DNA of 63,098 nt, filler included, from an uncultured bacterium (lineage in GTDB: Bacteria; Hinthialibacterota; Hinthialibacteria; Hinthialibacterales; Hinthialibacteraceae): NCBI GenBank assembly GCA_964449065.1. It is 3 parts of 3 records of this genome, joined end to end, with 100 filler letters (N's around TTAATTAATTAA, not from the genome) between each part and the next. Parts side by side here need not be neighbours in the genome. Positions count along the whole stretch, not along the records: positions 42,560 to 63,098 come from CAYVAZ010000051.1; 2 more parts are not named here. One strand, given 5' to 3'. Every line of letters begins with the position of its first letter. Positions within the stretch are counted from its first letter, which is position 1. Shown here piece after piece: positions 6,521 to 63,098 of this stretch. Below the pieces are notes generated by a model. It made no database searches. It was not told where the DNA came from and worked only from the letters and a program-made list of their open reading frames with translations. The position numbers were made by a program, and so were the translations under genes.

Positions 6521-7876
6521 ATGAAAAATAGTGCGCGTCAACAAAAGTTTTCGGTTCCCAACGGGAAGGACTCTTCTCCGGTTTTGGATGCCCCCTTAGC
6601 CGAACGTTGCCGGCCCCGGACGTTGGATGAAATCTTTGGGCAGGAGGAATTGCTGGCCCCCGGCAAGCCCCTGCGCCGCGCGATTGAGAACGATCAAATC
6701 CCTTCGATGATTTTGTGGGGTCCGCCGGGAAGCGGCAAAACCACGCTGGCGAAGGTGTTGGCGGGTGTGTCCGAATCCCGGTTTGTGCAACTCTCCGCGA
6801 CGGATAGCGGGATCCGCGATTTGCGCAAAGTGATAGAAGGCGCGCAAAAGTCTCTGAATGAAACGCAACAAAAGACGCTGCTTTTTATTGATGAGATTCA
6901 CCGCTGGAACAAAAGCCAGCAGGACGCGCTGCTGCCGTATGTGGAATCGGGGTTAATTAAGCTGGTGGGGGCAACGACGGAAAACCCTTCGTTTGAGATT
7001 AACGGGGCGTTGTTGTCGCGCACAACGGTGTTTACGCTTTCGCAATTGCAGCCGCACAGCGTGATACGCATCTTGCGGCAGGGGATGGAAACGCTTCAAC
7101 ACGAAGGCATACATGTTGCGGCGGATGATGGCGCGCTGGAAGCGGTTGCATCGGTTTCGCATGGCGACGCGCGGGTGGCGTTGGGCGCGCTAGAGCAATG
7201 TGTTCATTATTCGCGCGGCGATGACGGATGTGTTTCTTTGACGGCTGAGTCGGTGAAAGAGACGCTGCAAGACAAACGGCTGCTTTATGACAAAGCGGGA
7301 GAAGAGCATTACAACACGATATCCGCGCTGCATAAATCGATGCGGGGGAGCGACCCGCAGGCGGCGATTTATTGGATCGCGCGGATGCTGGAAGCGGGGG
7401 AAGACCCGATGTATATCGCGCGGCGTGTGATTCGCTTCGCGGTGGAAGATGTTGGACTCGCCGACCCGAACGCGCTGCTGATTGCCACGGCCGCCCGCGA
7501 TACCTATCACTTGTTGGGATCACCGGAAGGTGAGTTGGCGATTGTTGAGGCGGCGGTGTATATGGCGGCCGCACCCAAAAGCAACGCGTTATACAAAGCC
7601 TTTGCCGATGCCAAAGCCGCGGTGAAGCAGTTGGGCTATTTGCCGGTTCCGAAACACATTCGCAACGCGCCGACGGAATTGATGAAGAACTTGGATTATG
7701 GCAAAGGGTATGAGTATTCGCATGATTATGATCACGCGTATTCGGGGCAATCCTATTTGCCGGATCAATTGCAAAACACGCAGTTCTATACACCGACCGA
7801 CCGCGGGTTTGAGAAGAAAATTCAAGACCGCATGAAGTTTTGGGAAGAGTTGAAAGCGGGGCGGAAGGAGACGTAG
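6521..7876 (+). CDS. rarA: Replication-associated recombination protein A (MgsA/RarA)
   Basis: PLAERCRP, WGPPGSGKTT, IDEIHR, GATTENP, SALHKSMRGSD motifs. Confidence 0.95.
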   Translation: MKNSARQQKFSVPNGKDSSPVLDAPLAERCRPRTLDEIFGQEELLAPGKPLRRAIENDQIPSMILWGPPGSGKTTLAKVLAGVSESRFVQLSATDSGIRDLRKVIEGAQKSLNETQQKTLLFIDEIHRWNKSQQDALLPYVESGLIKLVGATTENPSFEINGALLSRTTVFTLSQLQPHSVIRILRQGMETLQHEGIHVAADDGALEAVASVSHGDARVALGALEQCVHYSRGDDGCVSLTAESVKETLQDKRLLYDKAGEEHYNTISALHKSMRGSDPQAAIYWIARMLEAGEDPMYIARRVIRFAVEDVGLADPNALLIATAARDTYHLLGSPEGELAIVEAAVYMAAAPKSNALYKAFADAKAAVKQLGYLPVPKHIRNAPTELMKNLDYGKGYEYSHDYDHAYSGQSYLPDQLQNTQFYTPTDRGFEKKIQDRMKFWEELKAGRKET

Positions 7877-7881
7877 ATTTT

Positions 7882-8787
7882 TTAGGAGGACCGGAAGTAG
7901 CGGCGCATGGTGCGGTAAAGGGCTTTGTTGCCCCGGATGAGGAAGTAGATCAAGCAAAGTTTCATAAGAAGAATCCATAACCATTCAATTTCAAGTGGAC
8001 TTTTATATATCGAACTGTCTTCTCCCGTAATGATTACCAATGGGTTCAACCACTCTAATGGTGAATCCCCCTTATTGAACATAAAAGAATACCAGTTCCA
8101 ACCGGCATGAAGGGCAATAGGGAACCAAATGGTTTTGGCAGCGAGAAAAGCCGTTCCATAAAACAGACCGGATGAGGTATATACGAGAAACATAATAATC
8201 ACATCCGATAGAGGCCATTGATCATTTGCGAAATGAGCTAATGCAAAAAGAAAGGATGATATAAACAACGCAGGAAGCACACCGACCAGATAACGAAACA
8301 GCAATAGCAAAAATCCCCGAAACAGAAATTCTTCTGCCGCGGCAGCTAAAATAACGGTCCCGAATCCTTGGAGGCAGTTGGTGATATCCCAGTGTGGATT
8401 CCATTGCGGATTTACATCCCAAAAGAGCACTCGGTTGGCAAGAAAAACGCTGTGCATACAAACGCCCAGTATCAGCCCGAAAACGATCAACCAAATGTGT
8501 TTGAACGATGGGATTGGATCCAGAGTGTATGCTTTGGGTTCGTATAACCGGTACCAATGAAAACAGTATATAAAGCAGCCGTAGATAATGATGAACTTTA
8601 ACAAATCCCGCTCAAAAGGCCAAGCATGAAACGAGACACGATAAAACAATTTAGCGACGAAAAAAGCAATCAAATGAAAGACAATAAAGAAGGCTATGAA
8701 CTTTGCTGTAAATGTAAGCCATTTCTTTGATTGGTACTTATCCCAAATTTGTTGAAAATAGGTTGGCAAATAGCATGTCGCATTCAT
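7882..8787 (-). CDS. CPBP (CAAX/Abi) family intramembrane metalloprotease
   Basis: EEFLFRG, FALAH and HAGWN motifs; multi-TM. The upstream ORF extension to 8922 is translated REP sequence. Confidence 0.85.
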   Translation of the reverse strand: MNATCYLPTYFQQIWDKYQSKKWLTFTAKFIAFFIVFHLIAFFVAKLFYRVSFHAWPFERDLLKFIIIYGCFIYCFHWYRLYEPKAYTLDPIPSFKHIWLIVFGLILGVCMHSVFLANRVLFWDVNPQWNPHWDITNCLQGFGTVILAAAAEEFLFRGFLLLLFRYLVGVLPALFISSFLFALAHFANDQWPLSDVIIMFLVYTSSGLFYGTAFLAAKTIWFPIALHAGWNWYSFMFNKGDSPLEWLNPLVIITGEDSSIYKSPLEIEWLWILLMKLCLIYFLIRGNKALYRTMRRYFRSS

Positions 8788-21191: not shown

Positions 21192-21291
21192 NNNNNNNNN
21201 NNNNNNNNNNNNNNNNNNNNNNNNNNNNNNNNNNNTTAATTAATTAANNNNNNNNNNNNNNNNNNNNNNNNNNNNNNNNNNNNNNNNNNNN
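21192..21291. other. Scaffold gap with artificial TTAATTAATTAA linker
   Basis: N run with an all-frame stop linker. Confidence 0.95.
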
Positions 21292-42459: not shown

Positions 42460-42559
42460 NNNNNNNNNNNNNNNNNNNNNNNNNNNNNNNNNNNNNNNNN
42501 NNNTTAATTAATTAANNNNNNNNNNNNNNNNNNNNNNNNNNNNNNNNNNNNNNNNNNNN
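42460..42559. other. Scaffold gap with linker
   Basis: N run with TTAATTAATTAA. Confidence 0.95.
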
Positions 42560-54424: not shown

Positions 54425-54512
54425 TATACGTCAATCTTTTTTCCTGCATTTCTCTTCAGAACACCCCCTTCATGTTATGCTAATCAAAAACGGTACATCT
54501 CGTCACAGAAAA

Positions 54513-55922
54513 ATGAAACTCAATCCTTTTTCATTCCAGTTTGTCGATGCCGTAAGGCGCTATCTTACATCCCAGAATCTATCCTTGCGCAACAAACAAA
54601 TCTTGGCAGCCGTGTCGGGCGGAGTGGATTCCAGCGTTCTTTTGGATGTTCTTTATCATCTAAGTGAGATGGAAGAGTTTTCGCTTTACGCCTGCCACGT
54701 CAATCATGGTTTGCGGGGAGAGGAATCGCAGCAGGATGAAACGTTCGTAATTCAACGCACACGCGATTATAACATCCCCCTTACCGTCCGCCGATTTGAA
54801 CAGGATGACATCCAAGCCGTTCAATCCGGCAATGTGGAAGAAGAAGCCCGCATACTGCGCTACAAACTCTTGACAAACACAGCGGAAGAATTGAATTTTG
54901 ATGCCATTGCCACCGGGCACACCAAAAGCGATCAAGCCGAAACGGTGCTGCACCGCCTGATGCGTTCCAGCGGACTGTCAGGCCTGGCTGGAATCTGGCC
55001 GGTTTGTACGATGGATGGTCAGACCGTCATGCGTCCGTTCTTGTGCCATCCGCGCGCCGCGGTCTTGGCGTACGCGGAACAAAACAAGATTCCATTCCGC
55101 CAAGACTCGATGAATGAAGACGAGCAGTTCACCCGCGTTTCCATCCGGAAACACCTGATTCCGTATCTTCAATCCAATTACAATCCTAACGTGGAAGACT
55201 CGTTGTTTCATTTGGCATCGATCTGCAAAGATGAAGAAGACTATTGGGATGTTCATCTCAATCATCTGACAAAAAGAATCGGTGATGGAACCCAAGAAGC
55301 GCCGGCAAATAGACTCCATTTCCAATCGCTGACCAAAGCGGAACAAAGAAGGTATTTACGCCGTTGGCTGCAATCGTTTCAAGTCGATCCCTCGTATGCC
55401 GTGATTGAAAGAATGGTGGATATGCTCAACAGGGAAAAACCGCAGGAAGAGTTCCCCATCAATGAAACCTTCTATTTGTTCCGCCGGTATGATCAATTTT
55501 ATATAAGCCCAAAGGAACCGAGCAAATCCATTGACGGTATCGTTGAAATTCGTATTCCAGGAAAAACGGTATCCCCGGAATTTCATGTCGCGGTAGAAAC
55601 CGAAATCCTTCCCGGCAATGTCATCCCGTTGGAAAATGACAACCGCTTCCGCATTCGCATTGATTATGAGAAAGTCAAACACGGTTTGTATATCCGAAGT
55701 CGCAGAGAGGGCGACGCCATTCAGCCTTTGGGAATGAGCGGGTCGAAAAAGTTAAAGAAGATTCTGCAAGAGCGCAAAGCCACGAAGGAAGAACGGGAAA
55801 CCATGCCGCTGTTGTGCCACGGCAATGAAATCGTATGGGTGCCGGGATATTGTGAATCGGACAGACACAAAATAACAGAGAAAACCAGACAAATCTTACA
55901 AATCATCTTAAAACCGTTTTAG
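54513..55922 (+). CDS. tilS: tRNA(Ile)-lysidine synthetase
   Basis: AVSGGVDS PP-loop, H..SDQAET, C-terminal KKLKK..QE. Confidence 0.95.
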   Translation: MKLNPFSFQFVDAVRRYLTSQNLSLRNKQILAAVSGGVDSSVLLDVLYHLSEMEEFSLYACHVNHGLRGEESQQDETFVIQRTRDYNIPLTVRRFEQDDIQAVQSGNVEEEARILRYKLLTNTAEELNFDAIATGHTKSDQAETVLHRLMRSSGLSGLAGIWPVCTMDGQTVMRPFLCHPRAAVLAYAEQNKIPFRQDSMNEDEQFTRVSIRKHLIPYLQSNYNPNVEDSLFHLASICKDEEDYWDVHLNHLTKRIGDGTQEAPANRLHFQSLTKAEQRRYLRRWLQSFQVDPSYAVIERMVDMLNREKPQEEFPINETFYLFRRYDQFYISPKEPSKSIDGIVEIRIPGKTVSPEFHVAVETEILPGNVIPLENDNRFRIRIDYEKVKHGLYIRSRREGDAIQPLGMSGSKKLKKILQERKATKEERETMPLLCHGNEIVWVPGYCESDRHKITEKTRQILQIILKPF

Positions 55923-56269
55923 GTTCATACGGGCTTATTTTCCGGCAAACTGTACACTGTTTTACAAACCGACTGCTTCTACTGGAAGCCGCTCTTTCAC
56001 ATCATGTTCGGCAAGGATATTCTGATCAATTTTATCAAGAGGGTTGCATCAAGAAGTTGAAGTCTACCCCAATCCTTCCTTTTATCCCCACCAAGCCACC
56101 CCTTCTTTTGCAGGAAGGGCAAAGCCGTGTCTTGCCCAACGGGATTGCGTGAACAGTGTTCGTTGATAGGGAGTCGGGAATGGGGAGTTGGAAAATAAGG
56201 ACATCCTGAGTATTCCGGTTCAGGCAAGATAGAATATTCCACATAAACTTGCTGGTGGGATGTTTGGAC

Positions 56270-56434
56270 GGGTGGCAAAGAACGGGATGGGCAAAGGCAA
56301 GCGAAGCCTGCCTTTGCGTTAGCAGCATAAACTTTCATGCAGGGAGTTGATACTGATTGATAAAATTGAAATGGCATCAATAAATGATTGAGTTTTACAA
56401 CAAGGGTAGACGAACGGCCTTCCCCTTGCCACCC
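56270..56434 (+). repeat. Array repeat copy 1 (inverted REP doublet; left end duplicated)
   Basis: GGGTGGCAA...CAAAGGCAAGCGAAGCCTGCCTTTG...CAAGGGTAG...TTGCCACCC. Confidence 0.9.
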
Positions 56435-56506
56435 GACTGGTCAGCCCCTGTCAAAATAGGCTTGGTTTTTTGCACGATTGAAGGTACCCTTGATCTGGAG
56501 GATGCG

Positions 56507-56773
56507 ATGATTAAACACATGTCTATTTCAGAAACCCAAGAGAAGTTGACTTCATTGGAAGACGAATTTTCGAATGAAGATACCATTTCAGTAACGGATC
56601 AGGGGAAAAATAGGTTTGCAATTCTTCGCTGGGATACCTATGAAGCCATTACGGAAACGTTAGAAATCCTTTCAGATGAAGCCGCTTACTCAGATGTAAA
56701 GAAGGGTTTACGTCAGTTGCAGAATGATGAAGTAGTGGATTTGGAGGCTCTCAAAAAAGAATTCCATGTATAG
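56507..56773 (+). CDS. Phd/YefM-family antitoxin
   Basis: MSISE...YEAITETLEILSD; GGAGG RBS; overlaps the toxin start. Confidence 0.85.
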   Translation: MIKHMSISETQEKLTSLEDEFSNEDTISVTDQGKNRFAILRWDTYEAITETLEILSDEAAYSDVKKGLRQLQNDEVVDLEALKKEFHV

Positions 56774-57080
56774 GATCGTTATCACGAAACATGCGGCAGA
56801 AAACTTGAAACGGTTGGACAGAAAAACGCAAGCCAAAATACTTCAGCGGATTGACAAACTCAAGCAGAATCCTTCCCAAATCGGCAAACAACTCACAGGA
56901 CCATTGAGAGAATTGCGGTCTCTTCGGGCTGTGGGACAGCGGTACCGAATCATCTACAAAATTATTGAAGACCGGGTCGTGGTGGTGGTGGTTGCCCTGG
57001 GTTTGAGAAAAGAAGGCGATAAAAAAGATATCTATGAGATGATGAAAAAATATATCCAAAATAAACTGCGTAATGAATAG
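56766..57080 (+). CDS. RelE/ParE-family toxin (RelE-like)
   Basis: Y.I..T..A...L..LD...GK.L.G.L..LRS.R..QRYRIIY. Confidence 0.9.
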   Translation: MYRIVITKHAAENLKRLDRKTQAKILQRIDKLKQNPSQIGKQLTGPLRELRSLRAVGQRYRIIYKIIEDRVVVVVVALGLRKEGDKKDIYEMMKKYIQNKLRNE

Positions 57081-57120
57081 TGCGCAGGGTGACACAAAAC
57101 GACCGCACCCATCTACGATA

Positions 57121-57250
57121 CTCTTCGATTACAGATGAGTGGCAGGGGTAAGATTGTGAAACTTCTTGTGTGAATCAGGAGGGTCAGAATGTGCCGGATA
57201 TTCAGGATAACGGCGCAGCGCTGCATCCCACTCACCCCTTCATCCTGGAC
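57121..57250 (+). repeat. Companion 130-bp repeat (CAGGAT-rich), copy A
   Basis: Aligns with 58871-59000 and, more loosely, 59904-60018. Confidence 0.85.
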
Positions 57251-57394
57251 GGGTGGCAAAGGCAAGCGAAGTCTGCCTTTGCGTTCGCAGCATAAAACTT
57301 TCATGCAGTGAGTTGATACTGATTGATAAAATGGAAATGGAACATTTTTGAGCTTTACAACAAGGGTAGACGAACGGCCTTCCACTTGCCACCC
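57251..57394 (+). repeat. Array repeat copy 2
   Basis: 144 bp with GGGTGGCAA/TTGCCACCC ends. Confidence 0.92.
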
Positions 57395-57447
57395 GACCAA
57401 AAATAAAACTAAACTATGTGGAAAACATGAGATTACTCGACAGCACA

Positions 57448-57501
57448 GCTTCTATCCATGCATCTTTTGCGATCAGCGTTTCATGCAGCGCTTCTTCCGG
57501 T
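57448..57501 (-). pseudogene. 54-bp remnant of a hicB-like gene
   Basis: 49/54 identical to 60687-60740, inside the intact hicB-like gene. Confidence 0.75.
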
Positions 57502-57513
57502 AAATACGGTAAT

Positions 57514-57729
57514 TCATGAATGGCTCCAAGCCACATTCTCAAGCACCACCTGTTTCAGCACATTCTGATCCTTAAAATGCTTCATGGCATCCAATATTTC
57601 GATTCCGGCTAATTTTCCGTTTTGATCATAATCAGCAGCGATGCCTTCGGTTAAATGTTTGGTGGTGACTGTGGTTTCATGAAAACGGATATAGAGAGCA
57701 TCCACTTCTTCATCATAAGTGATAATCAT
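57514..57729 (-). CDS. DUF2283 domain protein (putative antitoxin)
   Basis: ITYDEEVDALYIRF...DYD..G.L.GIEILDA. Confidence 0.9.
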   Translation of the reverse strand: MIITYDEEVDALYIRFHETTVTTKHLTEGIAADYDQNGKLAGIEILDAMKHFKDQNVLKQVVLENVAWSHS

Positions 57730-57747
57730 GCGATTTTCCTTTCACCA

Positions 57748-58014
57748 TTAAAAATAGTACGTATAAACCGTGACCACTGTAATCTTTTTTTCATCGTCAA
57801 CAAAAATAGGACGTATTTGCTGAGTTGAATAAACTGTACCGTTCCATTCTTTATTATAAGGAATATTCATGCGGCATTCTAAACGATCTTGTTCTGCCTG
57901 CTTCCATTCAGACGATCGGATTGCATTGATTACATCCACCTCATTCGTACCACGGTATTGTGCTTGTTGCAATGCATGACCAGACATCCGAATTGGCTTA
58001 TCAATGCGTTCCAC
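57748..58014 (-). CDS. DUF4258-like protein (putative RelE-fold toxin)
   Basis: SGHA..Q...RG....V...I...VVTVY; paired with DUF2283. Confidence 0.75.
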   Translation of the reverse strand: MERIDKPIRMSGHALQQAQYRGTNEVDVINAIRSSEWKQAEQDRLECRMNIPYNKEWNGTVYSTQQIRPIFVDDEKKITVVTVYTYYF

Positions 58015-58122
58015 AATTTCCCTTCCTATAAACGAATTATACTATATTTACTTGCAAAATTCAAAAAGGGAGAAGAGAGCCATAAAATACGTTTCGCCCT
58101 CATCGCTTATTTTCTCCTGGAG

Positions 58123-58272
58123 GTGTGGCAAAGGCAAGCGAAGTCTGCCTTTGCGTTCGCAGCATGATACTTTTAAGTAGGGATTTGATTCTGATTGATA
58201 AAATTGCAATGGCATCAATAAATGATTGAGTTTTACAGCAAGGGTAGACGAACAGCCTTCCCCTTGCCACCC
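58123..58272 (+). repeat. Array repeat copy 3
   Basis: Aligns with copies 1, 2, 4, 5 and 6. Confidence 0.92.
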
Positions 58273-58382
58273 GACCCTATTCAATCATCCAGAGTATCCC
58301 GATTCAGACAAAACAGAGTCTTCTACAGAAACCAAAGATGGGATGTTTGGGAATGGAGCGTTTTCTGTTATAATTTAGAATT

Positions 58383-58604
58383 ATGAACAAAATTGAAACC
58401 CTGGATATTTCTCACATCCGTTTCACTTCAATGGCACAACCCACCGATGAAGATGTAGCCCTATGGGACAGCCTGACCGATGATGAAAAGAATGCCGTGC
58501 TTGATCGTGAGATTGATGAGGCAATGGCAAGCGGGATAGCCCCAAAACAGACGATGGCTGAAATCATAGAAGAAGCCAAAGCCGAAATGAAAAATGAAGT
58601 ATAG
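58383..58604 (+). CDS. Putative antitoxin (ParD-like C-terminus)
   Basis: Acidic 73 aa, EIDEAMASG...MAEIIEEAK; overlaps the ParE-like gene. Confidence 0.7.
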   Translation: MNKIETLDISHIRFTSMAQPTDEDVALWDSLTDDEKNAVLDREIDEAMASGIAPKQTMAEIIEEAKAEMKNEV

Positions 58605-58863
58605 TCTTTCAGACCGTGCTCAAGCTGACCTTATCGGGATATATACTTACACCGTAATCAATTTCGGAGAGACACAGGCAGAACGTTACTTGGGTGGTCT
58701 ATATGATTCATTTGAGCGCTTACTGGATAATCCCAAGTTGGGCAAACCAGCAAGGAAGAACACACGATGCTATATCTACAAGAGTCATTATGTGATCTAT
58801 CATATTGATGGTGATACAATCAAAATTCTGCGTGTTATACATACAAGAATGGAATTGCCTTAG
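58594..58863 (+). CDS. parE: ParE-family toxin
   Basis: Y.LS.RAQADL..IY.YT...FG..QAERY...H.IY...ILRVIH.RM. Confidence 0.88.
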   Translation: MKYSLSDRAQADLIGIYTYTVINFGETQAERYLGGLYDSFERLLDNPKLGKPARKNTRCYIYKSHYVIYHIDGDTIKILRVIHTRMELP

Positions 58864-58870
58864 ATTATCT

Positions 58871-59000
58871 CTCTTCGATTACAGATGAGTGGCAAGGGTA
58901 AGATTGAGGCGCTTCTTGTCTGTATCAGGATGTTCAGGATGTGCCGGATATTCAGGATGACGGCGCAGCGCTGCATCCCGCTCATCCCTTCATTCTGAAC
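58871..59000 (+). repeat. Companion repeat, copy B
   Basis: Aligns with 57121-57250. Confidence 0.85.
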
Positions 59001-59144
59001 GGGTGGCAAAGGCAAGCGAAGTCTGCCTTTGAGTTCGCAGCATGAAACTTTCATGCAGTGAGTTGATTCTGATTGATAAAATTGAAATGGAACATATTTG
59101 AGTTTTACAGCAAGGGTAGATGAACAGCCTTACCCTTGCCACCC
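59001..59144 (+). repeat. Array repeat copy 4
   Basis: 144 bp with perfect 8-bp end stems CAAAGGCA/TGCCTTTG and CAAGGGTA/TACCCTTG. Confidence 0.92.
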
Positions 59145-59252
59145 GGCCTGTTATATAAATATTTTGAAAAAGAAGCGTATATTGCTATAATTGACCATTA
59201 TGAGCGAGATGAAAACCAACATGTAAGATAAAAGAAAAAGGAGATATCAGAG

Positions 59253-59483
59253 ATGCCAACGTTTGAGCATGTTACACTTTCGGAATTACAAAACCGTTTG
59301 CAATCATTGAAGTTGCCTTCTGACACACGCATGACCGTCCAAATTGATGATTCTCAATTGGAACAGGCAGAATTGAGACGGAAAAAAGCTCTCGAAGCAA
59401 TGGAAAAACTGGAAGGGTCAGGCACTGGTGATCTTCTTGAAGCGCTGTTAGAGGAAAGAAAAAAAGATTTAGAATTATGGTAG
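59253..59483 (+). CDS. Putative antitoxin of the PIN toxin
   Basis: 76 aa, C-terminal LLEALLEERKKD; overlaps the PIN gene; AAGGAG RBS. Confidence 0.7.
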   Translation: MPTFEHVTLSELQNRLQSLKLPSDTRMTVQIDDSQLEQAELRRKKALEAMEKLEGSGTGDLLEALLEERKKDLELW

Positions 59484-59887
59484 CATACGTTTTAGATACG
59501 TCAGCTTTGATTGCTCTCATCGATAAAGAAGAAGGTGTTGAAACGGTTAAAGACCTTTTACGAAAATCATTAAAAAATGAAATCAACATCTATATTTCAA
59601 TCGTCAGCACCATAGAAATATTTTATGTTACATGGCAAAACCAAGGGGAAAAACGTGCTTTAGAACGTCTAAAAATGTTGAACGATTTGGCAGTCGTACA
59701 AGAACCACTGGATTCAAATTTAACGACATTAATTGGAGAATTAAAAGCAACGAATAGAATGTCATTTGCCGACTGTTGTATCGCAGCACTTGCAAAATGG
59801 AAGAAGGCAACACTTGTCCACAAAGATCCCGAATTTGAACAAATTGAAGAAGATCATATTAAACAACTCCAATTGCCTTACAAATAG
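59477..59887 (+). CDS. vapC: PIN-domain (VapC) toxin
   Basis: YVLDTSAL...E...SFADC...LVHKDPEF. Confidence 0.9.
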   Translation: MVAYVLDTSALIALIDKEEGVETVKDLLRKSLKNEINIYISIVSTIEIFYVTWQNQGEKRALERLKMLNDLAVVQEPLDSNLTTLIGELKATNRMSFADCCIAALAKWKKATLVHKDPEFEQIEEDHIKQLQLPYK

Positions 59888-59903
59888 AAAAAGAGAGTTG
59901 GGA

Positions 59904-60018
59904 ATGGGTGGCATAGTGGGGATTAAGGCGCTCCTTGTCCAAAGCAGGATGGTCAGGATTGGCAGGATATTCAGGATAATGGCGCGGTGCTGCATCCCGC
60001 TTATCCTTTCATTTTGGG
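59904..60018 (+). repeat. Companion repeat, copy C (diverged)
   Basis: caggat..tcaggat...ggatattcaggataa.ggcgc.g.gctgcatcccgct matches copies A and B. Confidence 0.75.
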
Positions 60019-60188
60019 TATCCCGGTTTAGACAAAAAAGAGTATTTCACGGGAATCGCTGGCGGGATGTTTTTAGTTTAATTGAAGGATAGGCAAAACC
60101 GTATCTTGCCCACTGGGATTACATTAAACAGCGTTCCTTAAGCCTTGGGCACAAAAAGACCGTGAGGCTATGATGATAAGAGGTTGAA

Positions 60189-60377
60189 ATGGATAATTTG
60201 ACCATGATTTATTGGAAAGAAGAGAAATTTTGGCTTGGGAAAATTAAAGAGCACCCTGAAATTATGACGCAGGGTGAAACGCTGGAAGAGTTGGAAGAGA
60301 ACATCAAAGACGCGTATCAATTGATGGTGCTTGATGATGTTCCGGAAGATTATCAAACCAAAGTTATTGCGTTATGA
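60189..60377 (+). CDS. hicB: HicB-family antitoxin (short)
   Basis: TQGETLEELEENIKDA motif; GAGG RBS. Confidence 0.88.
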   Translation: MDNLTMIYWKEEKFWLGKIKEHPEIMTQGETLEELEENIKDAYQLMVLDDVPEDYQTKVIAL

Positions 60378-60553
60378 AGCGCGGGCAGTTCATCAAAGAG
60401 TTGAAGAAAGCCGGATGTGTATTTGTCCGTCACGGTTCCAATCATGATATCTATATGAATCCCCAAACCGGGCAAAAGCAGCCTGTACCCCGCCACCGGG
60501 AAATCGAAGAAAAATTGGCTAAACATATTAAAAAGTATTTGGGATTAACATGA
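60374..60553 (+). CDS. hicA: HicA-family toxin (59 aa, not in the ORF track)
   Basis: MKRGQFIKELKKAGCVFVRHGSNHDIYMNP...PVPRHREI; ATGA overlap with hicB. Confidence 0.9.
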   Translation: MKRGQFIKELKKAGCVFVRHGSNHDIYMNPQTGQKQPVPRHREIEEKLAKHIKKYLGLT

Positions 60554-60571
60554 AGGCGGGCAAAGGCAGGC

Positions 60572-60602
60572 GGGTGGCAAGAGTAAGTTGTATCTTCCCT
60601 TG
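60572..60602 (-). repeat. Isolated, inverted right-end half of the array repeat
   Basis: gggtggcaagagtaagttgtatcttcccttg resembles the reverse complement of caagggtagatgaacagccttacccttgccaccc. Confidence 0.6.
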
Positions 60603-60619
60603 AAGCTTGGTTATTCATT

Positions 60620-60838
60620 TCACACCGCTTGATAGATGACCGGGCGAAATTGGGGCGGTGGGACGGGTTTTCCATTCGCTTGTGCGGCTTCTATCCATGC
60701 TTCTTTTGCGATCAGCACTTCATGCAATGCTTCTTCCGGTGTTTCTCCAAAAGCAGAGCAATATTTTAAGTCAGGGATATCAGCGATGTATCCTTCATCT
60801 TCTTCGCTGTAAAATACGTTGATATGATAGTCTTTCAT
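60620..60838 (-). CDS. hicB: HicB-family antitoxin (toxin partner truncated)
   Basis: YSEEDEGYIADIPDL..CSAFGETPEEAL.E...A..AW. Confidence 0.88.
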   Translation of the reverse strand: MKDYHINVFYSEEDEGYIADIPDLKYCSAFGETPEEALHEVLIAKEAWIEAAQANGKPVPPPQFRPVIYQAV

Positions 60839-60873
60839 TCTTCATCCTTTATGTGAAGATTGTAGCGTTCAAT
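60835..60873 (-). pseudogene. 3' remnant of a HicA-like toxin gene
   Basis: Frame IERYNLHIKDEE* ends in an ATGA overlap with hicB; the upstream part is missing. Confidence 0.5.
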
Positions 60874-60941
60874 CGTTGTGTTTGGTATATCTATACCGAT
60901 TTCCAAAAAAAATGCTCTGATTCATGCCATTTCATTCACGC

Positions 60942-61152
60942 ACCGGCTGGAAGCCGATGCTCCTCAAAACGAGCATACTTTTGAACGCGATTCTATTACG
61001 ATATTTAAAATAAGAGCGGATTGTTGCTGCGTTATTCGTGGCTCGGCGGGAGCCTCGCCCTCCCAAGTTATCGCTTGCGTGAGCGGTGGGTCAGAATGGC
61101 GCGACCCACCCTACGGTTTGCATTATTCGCGTGTATTGGCGTGCATTCGTGG
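60942..61152. repeat. Cluster of four REP-like families inside the array
   Basis: accggctggaagccg (60942), 25-mer REP (61040-61064), ggtgggtc...gacccacc (~61086), attcgcgtgtattggcgtgcattcgtgg (~61125). Confidence 0.65.
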
Positions 61153-61172
61153 TTGCAACCCTATGGACGGAC

Positions 61173-61316
61173 GGATGGCAATGGCAAGCGAAGTTTGCCT
61201 TTGCGTTCGTAGCATGATACTTTTAAGTAGAGAGTTGATTCTGATTAATAAAATTGAAATGGAAAGTACTTGAGTTTTACAGCAAGGGTAGAGGAACGGC
61301 CTTACCCTTGCCACTC
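61173..61316 (+). repeat. Array repeat copy 5
   Basis: Aligns with the other copies; ends slightly decayed. Confidence 0.9.
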
Positions 61317-61334
61317 GACCGTCCAATTGGGACT

Positions 61335-61724
61335 TCAATACGCGGCATGAACACTTTCATTCCTGCCTGAGAGGGCCAAATTAATCTCTATACGCGAATA
61401 AGGCACACGGGGAACTACACTGCCTCCCGGTCCTCTTTTCATAGAAACAAGACCATAATGTTCCATGGTCTTCAGCGTGCGGGAAAGATTGGATTTTTCC
61501 CTGCCCGAAAGCCTTGCAAGCTCGGTCAATGACTGCGGCTGGTGCTCATGTATCAGCGTCAACAAAGCCCTATTCTTCTCCGATAAAACCTTTGCAAAAC
61601 TCTCAATCGACGTAAACCAAACTTTAGGTTCACCGCGCTTTACTTTGCGTTGACCTCGCGCAATCTGCAATGTACGTTCTTTCATGTCCTCATAACTTGC
61701 AATTCCAATCAAAAGTGTCTTCAT
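61335..61724 (-). CDS. HTH antitoxin/regulator (HVO_A0114-like)
   Basis: KVWFTSIESFAKVLS...ELA.LSGR.KSNLSRTLK; overlaps the DUF6516 stop. Confidence 0.85.
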   Translation of the reverse strand: MKTLLIGIASYEDMKERTLQIARGQRKVKRGEPKVWFTSIESFAKVLSEKNRALLTLIHEHQPQSLTELARLSGREKSNLSRTLKTMEHYGLVSMKRGPGGSVVPRVPYSRIEINLALSGRNESVHAAY

Positions 61725-62089
61725 GTTTTTACCCCTCTTTCTTTGAGAACGGCATCGACTTCGTCCCAAAAATCCACCAAAAGCGTTTCCGCATCCTTGT
61801 AGTCATAGGGTCTGACCGTACGAAGTCTGTGCTTATGATCTTGTTTCTTTCTTTTCTTCCCGCTCGGTCCCTTCGTGGGCTTTACAGGATGAGCGTTGTC
61901 AAATCCAACCAGCCGTTCTCCATGTTCACCATGCAATGTCAACGAATAGTTTAGACCGTGGGGCTTTTCCGGTGTCGGCTTGATCTCCCGCACGACAAAC
62001 CGGACATAATGTTTATGATCGATGAACAACGTCTGCCCATTCAACTCTAAAAGGTGGTCCAGACTATGGTCCCGCTTTCCTTTGCTCAT
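61721..62089 (-). CDS. DUF6516-family protein (TumE-like putative toxin)
   Basis: PHGLNYSLTLH...RLVGFDNAH...DHKH motif. Confidence 0.8.
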   Translation of the reverse strand: MSKGKRDHSLDHLLELNGQTLFIDHKHYVRFVVREIKPTPEKPHGLNYSLTLHGEHGERLVGFDNAHPVKPTKGPSGKKRKKQDHKHRLRTVRPYDYKDAETLLVDFWDEVDAVLKERGVKT

Positions 62090-62092
62090 AAC

Positions 62093-62123
62093 GAACAGGT
62101 TATCATTTAATGATAACCTGTTC
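62093..62123. promoter_or_regulatory. Perfect 31-bp palindrome, probable operator
   Basis: GAACAGGTTATCATT-T-AATGATAACCTGTTC immediately upstream of the DUF6516 ATG. Confidence 0.7.
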
Positions 62124-62201
62124 AAGTGACGATATGATCAAGCGTGCAGCGGCCCGCTTCAACATTGTGTTCCACGTAAACCGCTGGCGGGATGTTTAGA
62201 C

Positions 62202-62361
62202 GGGTGGCAAAGGACAGGTGACGGGTGGCAAAGGCAAGCGAAGTCTGCCTTTGAGTTCGCAGCATAAAACTTTCATGCAGGGAGTTGAAACCGATTGATA
62301 AAATGGAAATGGAACGTATTTGAGTTTTACAGCAAGGGTAGAGGAACAGCCTGATACTTGC
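62202..62361 (+). repeat. Array repeat copy 6 (left end duplicated, right end decayed)
   Basis: GGGTGGCAAAGG at both 62202 and 62223; core aligns with the other copies. Confidence 0.9.
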
Positions 62362-62373
62362 TGAACAAATATA

Positions 62374-63098
62374 TTAATCTCCAAAAGCGTGTAAATCTTT
62401 CATCCCATTTATATCCAACACTTCTCTAAGAAAGCGATCACGTGTGAAGGGTGAGACAGGATCATAAATTGCAGGCCACACTTCTTCAACTTTTACATCT
62501 TCTAATGACAACTCCATATTAGAAGCGGATGAACAGTTCGATAATTGGGCATACTTTTCAGGTTCAATGAAAACAACAAGAATCCCAACTCTATATTTTT
62601 CACCATATTCGCGGAGTTCAGAAAAATCATCTATTTGTGATACAACAGTTTCATCGGAAGGATAACTAAAGGCAAAATATGCCCGATCAGCAAATCTTTT
62701 ATGTGATACAGCTTCAAAAAAAAATTTTCGCCAGTCTTTTTTTGAAATTTTAGCTTCGATAGTAATTAATTCAAAATATGAGATACCGCTAATACTATCT
62801 TCCACTCTAATACCAACTGCATCTGGATTGCCCCAAATACCTCCCTTTTTTGCTTGGGAAGTTTCTTTCGCATAATAATCTTTAGCACGAAGCCATTCAA
62901 CAAGTAAGTTATATAATTTTTGTTCGCGTTGAACTCGTGTAGATTCGTCTTGTGACAATGTTACAGATAAATCATTATCTGAATCAGTAATATCAGTTAT
63001 ATCAGTTTCTGGTTCATGTTCATGTTCAAGTGTAGTTGATCGGAGTTTATAACCGTATTTTCCTGGTTCACGTATGACACGAGATTCTGTATCTTCAG
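62374..63098 (-). CDS. PD-(D/E)XK nuclease-fold protein, 5' end beyond the window
   Basis: EQKLY...WGNPDAVG...IEAK...FFEAVS; the frame stays open from 62958 to the window edge. Confidence 0.7.
   Translation of the reverse strand, partial: EDTESRVIREPGKYGYKLRSTTLEHEHEPETDITDITDSDNDLSVTLSQDESTRVQREQKLYNLLVEWLRAKDYYAKETSQAKKGGIWGNPDAVGIRVEDSISGISYFELITIEAKISKKDWRKFFFEAVSHKRFADRAYFAFSYPSDETVVSQIDDFSELREYGEKYRVGILVVFIEPEKYAQLSNCSSASNMELSLEDVKVEEVWPAIYDPVSPFTRDRFLREVLDINGMKDLHAFGD

Follow-up and report, generated by a model that had tools for sequence, protein, structure and literature searches.

The DNA downstream of tilS in this genome raises the question of how unrelated toxin–antitoxin (TA) modules came to stand in a row, separated by copies of one repeat. 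A sequence-only reading had proposed an integron-like array of TA and defence cassettes, delimited by a ~145-bp repeat that is not a canonical attC site and assembled by a cassette-capture platform with a trans-acting recombinase. The window (the whole stretch of 63,098 nucleotides analysed) consists of three contigs joined by N, and the array lies entirely on one of these, contig C51, where it is read up to the contig end at 63098.

Layout and setting of the array

Upstream of the array, 13.5 kb of housekeeping genes end with tilS (54510–55922, plus strand; Pfam ATP_bind_3, TilS, and TilS_C). Downstream, six full copies of a repeat designated the A element, together with one single hairpin, separate unrelated TA modules. 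The sequence-only reading had placed these copies correctly; they lie at 56280–56438 (nhmmer E 2e-46), 57247–57400 (2e-51), 58119–58276 (1e-48), 58997–59150 (1e-51), 61169–61322 (1e-48), and 62219–62372 (7e-47), all on the plus strand, with start-to-start spacings of 965, 872, 878, 2172, and 1050 nt. Their pairwise identity of 82%–92% (BLAST E-values 1e-31 to 1e-54) is far beyond chance. Copies 1 and 2 are also backed by predicted folds, copy 2 by a terminal inverted repeat (I2), and copy 5 by an inverted repeat (I1). The right arm of copy 6 is decayed; the doubled start of this copy (62202/62223) is real and reflects a partial duplication of the left head at 62197–62218, and a further partial duplicate of the left head precedes copy 1 at 56266–56286. 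What had been taken for a half copy near 60572 is a single REP hairpin of the same family as the A-element arms (60570–60603, plus strand). No recombinase or transposase is found on contig C51, in line with the earlier remark that no integrase or transposase is visible. In eight relatives, the DNA after tilS holds genes of ordinary size and no array.

The junctions between modules are mosaics of the A element, of three further repeat modules (B, C, and D), and of other REP families. Module B, a decayed REP half joined to a GC-rich hairpin (families D2 and D4, with a predicted fold), occurs at 57121–57247 (plus strand), 58871–58997, and 59904–60016, directly after three unrelated plus-strand toxin genes at a distance of 8–41 nt; family D2 comprises 291 nt of B plus A, 89% alike. 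Module C (families D7 and D9) lies at 56194–56264 (plus strand), 58278–58348, 60002–60072, and 62161–62197, and both B and C are confined to this array. The small, hairpin-bearing module D (family D12, 78% alike) is present at 56108–56153 (plus strand) and 60082–60127, with a few more partial copies on contigs C84, C264, and C215. The stretch at 60934–61125, which has no assigned strand and a very high summed contig depth, carries further REP families of this genome: a 243-site family (61041–61065) and the hairpin type that flanks the RAYT gene of contig C152 (61085–61110). Such mosaics of several repeat types, as in BIMEs, do not amount to one site per cassette.

The A element and its hairpin family

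The A element is ~150 nt long and has at either end a hairpin with a conserved GGGT head, an 8–9 bp stem, and a loop of 6–13 nt. The two hairpins are inverted relative to each other, enclose a linker of ~70 nt, and represent different variants. In an alignment of 46 arms (42 distinct), 91.2% of cells pair, with compensatory changes in four of the nine stem pairs (27 cells). None of 500 shuffles reached the observed percentage paired or the covariation score, and slid controls paired at 37%–50%. Judged by this alignment, the A-element ends form one hairpin family. Both strands of the element are predicted to fold (−17 to −27 kcal/mol), either with their termini paired or into two hairpins; as single-stranded DNA it could adopt either two small hairpins or one long one.

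With a loose hairpin pattern, this genome yields 65 raw matches spread over 30 contigs, where a shuffled genome yields 2, and the exact pattern is matched 66, 22, and 20 times in the relatives G013, G016, and G003, respectively, with none for a reversed-pattern control. The 150-nt doublet is present in seven copies, six of them in the array and the seventh divided between contigs C164 and C444. A second form of ~175–190 nt has the same arms around an unrelated linker, with six full copies on contigs C24, C157, and C215, which suggests that doublets behave as units. Inverted arms, compensatory stem changes, and predicted folds agree with the earlier description of the repeat as a REP doublet, and the A element is one of the selfish REPIN/BIME type, not an integron site.

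The family is tied to RAYT transposases in sister genera. In G003, a Y1-transposase gene sits between inverted copies of the hairpin, and orthologues of 56%–66% identity occur in G016, G011, G001, G009 (three copies), and G002. A GGGT- or GGGC-headed hairpin lies close to the RAYT gene in all seven loci inspected, and on both sides, inverted, in six; the G001 locus is cut by its contig end. The two Y1-transposase proteins that were scanned score 83.4 and 92.7 bits against the NCBIfam cut-off of 80 for REP-associated tyrosine transposases. RAYT/HUH was thus rightly named as the enzyme family to look for, with the reservation that a cognate RAYT was not found in this genome, the MAG assembly of which is 86.7% complete.

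In REPIN–RAYT systems, as outlined by Bertels and Rainey (2011, PMC3116915), PMC3337134, and Nunvar (2010, PMC2817692), REP doublets are maintained by a single-copy RAYT. The likeness to the accounts given there extends to the pair of inverted hairpins enclosing a fixed linker, the presence of several nearly identical doublets in a genome, compensatory changes that keep the stem, and, in relatives, inverted hairpin copies flanking the RAYT gene. The present family differs in its GGGT head, where the two superfamilies described in PMC3733652 carry GTAG or CGTC tags, in its two arm variants, its copy number of only tens, the failure to find a cognate RAYT in this genome, and its co-oriented rows beside TA modules instead of a spread among core genes. 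The BIMEs and REPtrons of Escherichia coli, as treated by Ton-Hoang (2012, PMC3333891), likewise include mosaic intergenic clusters, inverted REP variants, long or short linkers, extra motifs, and RAYT genes between REPs or BIMEs, and a TA pair (hicAB) replacing a REPtron is already noted there. BIMEs are not, however, known as boundaries of rows of unrelated gene modules, whereas here the rows are kilobase-spaced and the linkers are 70–110 nt.

A bias towards toxin–antitoxin genes

The first module (plus strand) comprises a Phd-like antitoxin gene (56510–56773; PhdYeFM, 28 bits, below the cut-off of 29.8) and a ParE/RelE-like toxin gene (56766–57080; ParE-like_toxin, 37.9 bits, above cut-off). 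On the minus strand follow a HicB-like gene remnant (57448–57501; 91% alike to 60687–60740, family D10) and a DUF2283 gene (57514–57729; 62.6 bits, above cut-off) paired with a DUF4258-like gene (57748–58014; 19.8 bits, below the cut-off of 25; promoter-like site at 58064–58036). Two plus-strand modules each open with a small ORF previously read as an antitoxin: that at 58383–58604 (promoter-like site at 58347–58374) precedes a ParE toxin gene (58594–58863; ParE_toxin, 69.4 bits, above cut-off), this module having a 67%-alike paralogue on contig C444, and that at 59253–59483 (promoter-like site at 59164–59191, 11 of 12 matches) precedes a PIN/VapC toxin gene (59477–59887; PIN, 70.8 bits, above cut-off). 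A HicB-like gene (60189–60377, plus strand; UPF0150, a weak 18.1 bits, below cut-off) and a HicA toxin gene (60374–60553, plus strand; HicA_toxin, 46.6 bits, above cut-off) are followed by a solitary HicB-like gene on the minus strand (60620–60838; UPF0150 at 26.6 bits and HicB_lk_antitox at 24.1 bits, each narrowly short of its cut-off). The minus-strand genes for an HVO_A0114/MarR-type HTH protein (61335–61769) and TumE/DUF6516 (61721–62125), both above Pfam cut-offs, form a module with an operator-like perfect 15-nt palindrome (I4, 62093–62123); at the DNA level, it weakly matches DUF6516/MarR pairs carried by three plasmids.

The TA content first read from the sequence therefore stands for the ParE/RelE-like, DUF2283, ParE, PIN, HicA, HVO_A0114/MarR, and TumE assignments, falls below cut-off for the Phd-like, DUF4258, and both HicB-like ones, and does not extend to the ORFs at 58383 and 59253, neither of which has a Pfam family; modules in either orientation and with their own promoter-like sites are indeed seen. 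A defence role beyond TA is unsupported, since the 14 array proteins gave no match to PADLOC defence models other than weak HTH matches of the MarR-like protein. Nor is the final ORF (62374–63096, minus strand), which runs off the contig end, upheld as a PD-(D/E)XK nuclease: Pfam, NCBIfam, PADLOC, and PDB returned nothing for it, and the sole lead is a set of weak Atlas matches (0.79–0.80) to PD-(D/E)XK-type clusters. Between oppositely oriented array modules there is always repeat DNA; on contigs C444 and C354, TA modules also adjoin each other with no intervening repeat.

Outside the array, 18 of 27 elements of the hairpin family have a TA-type Pfam gene no more than 1 kb away (9 of 17 loci; Fisher p 1e-4 by locus against random sites). 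The corresponding figures are 2/40 for random sites and 0–1/20 for the 243-site REP family of this genome. A scatter regardless of gene type, which the sequence-only reading had held to speak against a cassette platform, is what this hairpin family shows in three sister genera (G013, 1/20; G003, 1/10; G016, 0–1/10; 2–3/40 in total), whereas in this genome the hairpins are strongly TA-linked. It is unusual for one genome to show so marked a TA preference. The elements also form five clusters (7, 5, 3, 2, and 3 elements), each of them uniformly oriented, for which the chance is ~3e-5.

How the array may have formed

The array is probably a lineage-specific type II TA island inserted after tilS, the modules being separated by REP doublets of the REPIN/BIME type and by decayed pieces, and the whole being reshaped by ordinary recombination. 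It is very improbable that it is instead a degenerate integron cassette array (CALIN) with the A element or another repeat module as attC. Like sedentary chromosomal integrons and CALINs, it has co-oriented repeats ~0.9–1 kb apart and small unrelated modules, many of them TA modules with their own promoters, with no adjacent integrase. Against this stand the best IntI score in this genome, 69 bits for a cut-off of 265 (≤94.5 in five relatives), and the lack of an RYYYAAC/GTTRRRY (R″/R′) box on either strand of all six A copies, so that the repeat is, as previously held, not a canonical attC. Box pairs at 45–160 nt number 0 in 7.1 kb, where shuffles give 1.9; the conserved end motifs are, judged by eye, opposite in polarity to attC; and the remaining local inverted repeats are A termini, the operator-like palindrome, and weak pairs. 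Also unlike integrons, the repeats are 82%–92% alike with long conserved linkers, junctions hold several repeat types, the genes point either way, and the arms come from a RAYT-linked REP family. The pdif modules of Acinetobacter plasmids are small and often TA, with short inverted recombination sites on either side, on which a housekeeping enzyme acts in trans; the sites here differ in being RAYT-tied hairpins with 6–13-nt loops, apparently not Xer-type, and chromosomal. Neisseria intergenic mosaic elements and 'minimal mobile elements' are repeat mosaics and modules swapped by homologous recombination via conserved flanks, with no mobility gene of their own; the present case concerns another repeat family and other organisms.

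An unlikely but more serious alternative is that the modules are mobile: a trans-acting RAYT, or some other enzyme, would cut the hairpins of two co-oriented doublets and move doublet, module, and doublet as single-stranded DNA, making the array a non-integron TA cassette store. The strong, family-specific TA bias, the single orientation per cluster, the promoter-like sites within modules, and a doublet layout (REP, insert, inverted REP) shared with relatives' RAYT loci are in keeping with this, as are lone TA pairs bracketed by hairpin arms among ordinary genes (HigBA on C157, between 7191–7233 and 8114–8178; BrnTA and PIN on C24). The model published in PMC3333891 has BIMEs possibly leaving as single-stranded circles by TnpA-REP, and the same source describes hicAB replacing RAYT with its BIMEs in 24 E. 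coli strains. However, no module recurs elsewhere in identical or near-identical form, and the one paralogue, 67% alike, has no flanks in common; TA modules adjoin without a repeat on C444 and C354; and hairpins lie beside ordinary genes in three sister genera, two of them with RAYT. One possible deletion joint is known. A contig of run X1, identical to the window on both sides, joins 56369 to 58208 and skips two modules, the skipped part having a depth of 1.65–2.9 (4.6 in the last bin) against 5.4–5.9 alongside. The joint falls in the linker, within a 30-nt stretch common to copies 1 and 3, rather than at the foot of a hairpin. This is the position expected from homologous recombination or from faulty assembly, and the junction reflects either a deletion driven by homology or an artefact of the assembly graph. 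With this joint in the spacer's shared sequence, no cognate RAYT found here, and junctions that are repeat mosaics, the proposed capture platform with a trans-acting recombinase is left unsupported, as is any excision or shuffling of modules by a site-specific enzyme. Less credible still is that the hairpins are kept beside TA operons for function, for example, transcription termination, insulation, or mRNA 3′-end stabilisation, the bias then reflecting selection and not mobility. Such REP roles have been proposed (PMC3733652; bioRxiv 10.64898/2026.03.23.713779), module B plus an A element directly follows three toxin genes, and oppositely oriented modules are always parted by repeat DNA. Yet one of six A copies scores as intrinsic-terminator-like (four such sites in the region against 6.2 expected), A copies occur upstream as well as downstream of operons in one orientation whatever that of the genes, the family has no TA preference in sister genera, and other TA modules are without the hairpins.

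The preferred reading, a TA island with selfish doublets, has points against it as well. In a published description (PMC3390384), REPs mark old and stable parts of genomes, and accessory regions are 'REP deserts', a picture opposite to REPs beside TA genes, and a bias limited to one REP family in one genome is not predicted by a passive account of selfish DNA in permissive spots. Uniform cluster orientation would also be given by a cassette array, module B placed so closely after three unrelated toxin genes resembles a cassette-associated site, and, with no cognate RAYT found in the incomplete assembly, the proposed spread is not tied to an enzyme here. On the TA-island reading, the doublets would be selfish, non-autonomous elements that multiplied on one strand or through local duplication, either of which would give co-orientation. 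The array would then grow and shrink by ordinary recombination among its co-oriented, closely similar copies, with no dedicated cassette recombinase, and the TA modules may persist beside the doublets because both are addictive or selfish and are tolerated in the same gene-poor spots.

A toxin-antitoxin array downstream of tilS

The metagenome-assembled genome (MAG) G000, to which the window belongs, comprises 515 contigs (5.22 Mb) and is 86.7% complete. The array lies on contig C51 (window 42560-63098), whose end is also the end of the window. Upstream of the array, C51 holds only housekeeping genes—for an oxidoreductase, a class II aldolase, an SBF transporter, LigA, Fpg, MoeA, polyprenyl synthase, and TilS—and most of this part has a G+C content of 0.45-0.52, versus 0.40-0.47 in the array. 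The N spacers occupy 21192-21291 and 42460-42559, and features are not to be read across the joins between C48, C49, and C51; a 1,373-nt stretch of C48 (879-2251) recurs inverted on contig C481 at 97.8% identity.

The repeat described in the sequence-only reading is real and lies where that reading placed it. Six copies of this A element, all on the + strand and 82%-92% identical (E 1e-31 to 1e-54), are found at 56280-56438, 57247-57400, 58119-58276, 58997-59150, 61169-61322, and 62219-62372, with successive spacings of 965, 872, 878, 2172, and 1050 nt, and a single REP hairpin is present at 60570-60603. The gene modules that the copies separate are likewise as described: ParE/RelE-like, DUF2283, ParE, PIN, HicA, HVO_A0114/MarR, and TumE (DUF6516) proteins exceed the Pfam cut-off; the Phd-like, DUF4258-like, and two HicB-like proteins give weak Pfam matches only; and the small open reading frames (ORFs) at 58383 and 59253 have no Pfam family. 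The last ORF is left unnamed by Pfam, NCBIfam, PADLOC, and a PDB sequence search, and its earlier assignment as a PD-(D/E)XK nuclease is not borne out, as Atlas leads to clusters of that type score just 0.79-0.80. A defence function for the cassettes, also proposed, finds no support from PADLOC. A perfect 15-nt inverted repeat with a 1-base gap (62093-62123) overlaps the start of the TumE gene and may be the operator for the TumE/HTH pair. Plasmid collections return weak matches (66%-69% identity) to DUF6516/MarR pairs on three plasmids; the phage collections searched with the array return no match, nor does an Rfam search of the region at E <= 1.

Besides A, the junctions between genes carry further repeat modules. 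Module B (113-127 nt) joins a decayed hairpin half to a GC-rich hairpin and lies 8-41 nt after three unrelated toxin genes on the + strand; module C (approximately 70 nt) occurs four times in the array and module D twice, and the junction at 59904-60127 contains B, C, and D without any A. Modules B and C are found nowhere else in G000. The stretch 60934-61125 carries other REP families, including one (61041-61065) of the 243 sites of a GC-rich REP-like family (25-nt core, three mismatches at most), which is scattered beside ordinary genes on 155 contigs of G000; summed contig depth over 60834-61087 reaches 230-370 in two metagenome runs. Between the second A copy and the DUF2283 gene lies a 54-nt HicB-like remnant (57448-57501), 91% alike to part of an intact gene (60687-60740), which attests to gene turnover within the array.

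A hairpin family linked to REP-associated tyrosine transposases

The two ends of each A copy are inverted versions of one hairpin, with each arm being a different variant: a GGGT head is followed by a stem of 8-9 pairs (GGCAARGGNA.../...TNCCYTTG) and a loop of 6-13 nt. The linker between the arms, approximately 70 nt long and AT-rich, is conserved across all six copies. As single-stranded DNA, either strand is predicted to fold at -17 to -27 kcal/mol, into either one long hairpin with paired termini or two local hairpins. In an alignment of 46 arms, 38 from G000 and eight from transposase loci of related genomes, 91.2% of cells are paired and four of the nine stem pairs show compensatory changes (27 cells); none of 500 shuffles matches the observed pairing or covariation score, and sliding the partner reduces pairing to 37%-50%. 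In these respects the A element is a REP doublet, with a stem maintained across many copies and inverted pairs of hairpins forming the repeated units. Described REP superfamilies carry a GTAG or CGTC tag at the 5' hairpin foot (PMC3733652); the head here has the consensus GGGT, with conservation of 90% or more in two of its G columns, and matches neither tag.

In the related genome G003, inverted copies of the hairpin flank a Y1-transposase gene that is divided between two overlapping ORFs. Orthologues with 56%-66% identity occur in G016, G011, G001, G002, and, in three copies, G009, and the G003 and G016 proteins exceed the cut-off of 80 bits for NCBIfam NF047646, "REP-associated tyrosine transposase" (RAYT), at 83.4 and 92.7 bits, respectively. 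Across seven RAYT loci in six relatives, a GGGT- or GGGC-headed hairpin lies close to the gene in all seven and inverted hairpins flank it on both sides in six (the G001 locus is cut by a contig end), with stems that co-vary by genus. A RAYT gene between inverted hairpins is the classical REPtron layout, as set out in PMC3333891. The modules of Xer-dependent pdif systems are bracketed by 28-bp XerC-spacer-XerD sites; the arms of the A element are explained by the RAYT-linked hairpin family. Contig C8 of G009 carries three paralogues of the clade (56%-61% identity to the G003 protein), and the two loci inspected there have hairpin variants of their own; RAYTs are usually single-copy.

No orthologue of this sister-genus clade was found in the 86.7% of G000 estimated to be assembled. 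The sole G000 RAYT above the NCBIfam cut-off lies at a contig end (C152:11290-11943, locus L005/L105; 185.8 bits) and was considered as the enzyme for the A-element family, a role rejected as unsupported; it is 28% identical to the cognate clade and lies between copies of a different hairpin (GGTGGGTC...GACCCACC stem), which recurs at approximately 19 sites, one of them in the array (61085-61110). At C273:230-950 (locus L006) of G000, a Y1-transposase-like frame is apparently broken around a GTAG-tagged palindrome, with a further palindrome copy upstream; a third REP family may thus have left a degraded REPtron at this locus.

Distribution and neighbours of the family

The array accounts for six of the seven 150-nt doublets in G000; the seventh straddles two contigs, the end of C164 and the start of C444, which share a 55-nt identical overlap. 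A second doublet form of approximately 175-190 nt combines the same two arms with an unrelated linker, and six full copies of it lie on C24, C157, and C215. Arms alone are commoner, a loose pattern giving 65 raw matches on 30 contigs compared with two in a shuffled genome. When merged, these form 48 elements, of which 34 on 18 contigs are confident by conserved head or nhmmer support (the C164/C444 copy being counted once), a modest number compared with classical REPs; 13 loose pattern-only matches were excluded before their neighbours were viewed. The hairpin is a trait of the taxonomic family: among 41 genomes, a 154-nt query matches eight, G000 included and all from that family, and the exact hairpin pattern has 66 sites in G013, 22 in G016, 20 in G003, and one each in G011 and G008, with none for the reversed pattern. 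Unrelated to the array, many contigs of G016 carry at least 13 identical-scoring copies of a tyrosine-recombinase frame of approximately 238 residues, which looks like a multi-copy mobile element. Metagenome scans recover no locus with the A-linker pattern and, with the left-arm pattern, one contig of 2.6 kb, on which a lone hairpin lies next to ordinary genes; neither scan yields a second array. A hairpin scan of genome contigs gives 22 loci, 18 of them in one MAG and the other four spread singly over four MAGs from unrelated taxa.

Neighbours were surveyed around all confident elements outside C51 (27 elements at 17 loci) by Pfam scanning of crudely called, longest non-overlapping ORFs of at least 55 residues within 1 kb on each side, in a sampled test. 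A gene of toxin-antitoxin (TA) type lies within 1 kb of 18 of the 27 elements (nine of the 17 loci), one borderline distance of 981 nt being counted and one of 1,007 nt left out; the types represented are Fic, BrnT, PIN, HicB/RHH, HigBA, Gp49, YafQ, ParE, RelE, DUF4258, and DUF433/PIN_10. Random sites in G000 give 2/40, one being a hairpin site itself (on C484) and the other a DUF2442 gene, and the 243-site REP-like family gives 0-1/20, the doubtful case being a sub-threshold RHH and two of the sites overlapping. For the same hairpin family in other genomes the counts are 1/20 in G013 (HepT; matched controls 15-20 kb away, 0/20), 1/10 in G003 (DUF2442), and 0-1/10 in G016 (a sub-threshold RHH). 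Fisher tests by locus give p = 1e-4 for the comparison with random sites and 4e-4 for that with sister genera. The genes surrounding the loci are ordinary and differ from one locus to the next (FliS, type IV pilin-like, nitrate reductase delta, and others), so the loci are not fragments of a single island. Elements belonging to one cluster share one orientation in all five clusters (seven, five, three, two, and three elements), with a chance probability of approximately 3e-5.

PMC3390384 depicts REPs as marking old core regions, with accessory DNA forming REP deserts; the TA bias of the A-hairpin family in G000 is the opposite of this published picture. In the literature searched, no description of REP-delimited TA rows was found; it holds isolated notes of REPs near TA genes, namely at the ccdO157 region (PMC3184786) and where hicAB replaces the Escherichia coli REPtron (PMC3333891).

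Dynamics and readings of the array

Three metagenome runs, all from one microbial-mat study that may well be the source of G000, are served as contigs, in which circular one-repeat products cannot be seen. Two of them contain the stretch (73% and 52% of sampled words); parts uncovered in the second run (60326-60833 and beyond 62358) and a drop at the contig end in the first are given no weight. In the first run, an 851-nt contig identical to the window over 431 + 420 nt joins 56369 to 58208, omitting the Phd/RelE and DUF2283/DUF4258 modules. The joint falls in the linker, within a 30-nt stretch common to the first and third A copies, which are the most similar pair. Cutting by a RAYT or another site-specific enzyme would be expected to leave a joint at a hairpin foot, and this one lies elsewhere. 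It fits a subpopulation that has lost two modules via recombination between repeat copies. If the Logan graph uses k=31, the 30-nt overlap equals k-1 and the joint could be a graph cross-over; the joint is for this reason rejected as proof of excision. The lower depth of the skipped part (1.65-2.9, with a last bin of 4.6, versus 5.4-5.9 on both sides) argues for a real variant without settling the matter, and in the second run the skipped part is at full depth with no joint. Loose contig ends at 57246 and 58273 show that the sample holds additional A copies whose flanks differ. A contig of the second run over the TumE gene (61726-62091) differs at 26 of 366 nt (approximately 93% alike) and is a second allele or paralogue in the population.

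Elsewhere in G000 the array modules have no counterpart, except for a ParDE-like pair on C444 that is 67% alike and has no flanking sequence in common with the array. TilS proteins of the nearest genomes compared are 39%-46% identical, and in eight relatives the genes after tilS are of ordinary size and vary from genome to genome, with no small-gene row, which indicates that the island is lineage-specific. These downstream genes map to scattered contigs of G000; G011 has one loose hairpin-pattern match 6.5 kb downstream of tilS.

The reading that we favour, and hold to be fairly probable, is a TA island punctuated by selfish elements: the A doublets, members of a RAYT-linked REP family, would have settled between TA modules, and recombination between co-oriented copies would then reshape the array. 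An array of integron attC sites or a CALIN is very improbable. The repeat is not a canonical attC, as the sequence-only reading had also concluded, with no RYYYAAC/GTTRRRY box on either strand of the six A copies; over 7.1 kb there are no box pairs at attC distance (shuffles give 1.9), and apart from the A termini and the TumE palindrome the local inverted repeats are weak pairs. C51 has no intI; the best IntI score in G000 (TIGR02249, cut-off 265) is 69.2 bits, and none of five hairpin-bearing relatives exceeds 94.5. Integron cassettes have one site each and are mostly promoterless and co-oriented; here, junctions hold one to four different repeat modules, genes lie on both strands, and the modules contain promoter-like sites. 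That the modules have such sites of their own is a point on which the earlier reading stands; they lie outside the repeat, with strong ones at 59164-59191, 58347-58374, and 58064-58036. Regulation of the adjacent TA genes by the repeats is, for its part, improbable. A MITE of a DDE-type insertion sequence would have both terminal inverted repeats and target-site duplications, a description that the A elements do not fit: they have terminal inverted repeats of 17-25 nt, and inspection by eye finds no shared direct duplication in the bases beside the six copies.

The doublet-bounded TA modules may instead be mobile cassettes, excised and re-inserted by a RAYT acting in trans or exchanged via the doublets as portable homology. 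The specificity of the TA bias to the A-hairpin family, the bracketing of single TA pairs by hairpins, and the uniform orientation of elements all speak for such mobility, which we nonetheless regard as unlikely. At C24:2543-4830 (locus L031), two hairpin elements bracket two non-TA genes, for a Pyr_redox_3 flavoprotein and an SBF-family transporter, so bracketing is not confined to TA modules.

A repeat-delimited row does not by itself point to a capture system. The usual view of REPs and REPINs is of selfish DNA, inert or of slight use, in the stable core genome, and integrons are, to our knowledge, the only well-understood chromosomal cassette stores. If the modules were mobile cassettes, such rows would be gene-cassette arrays of a second kind, independent of integrons and dedicated to addiction modules. 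A functional REP family lying almost solely beside TA modules, in co-oriented rows, would tie the repeats of HUH transposases to addiction- and defence-gene turnover and offer a simple way to shuffle genes with no integrase involved. On the favoured, ordinary reading of a punctuated island, too, REP doublets can build "integron-like" rows in uncultured phyla, which integron finders will miss.
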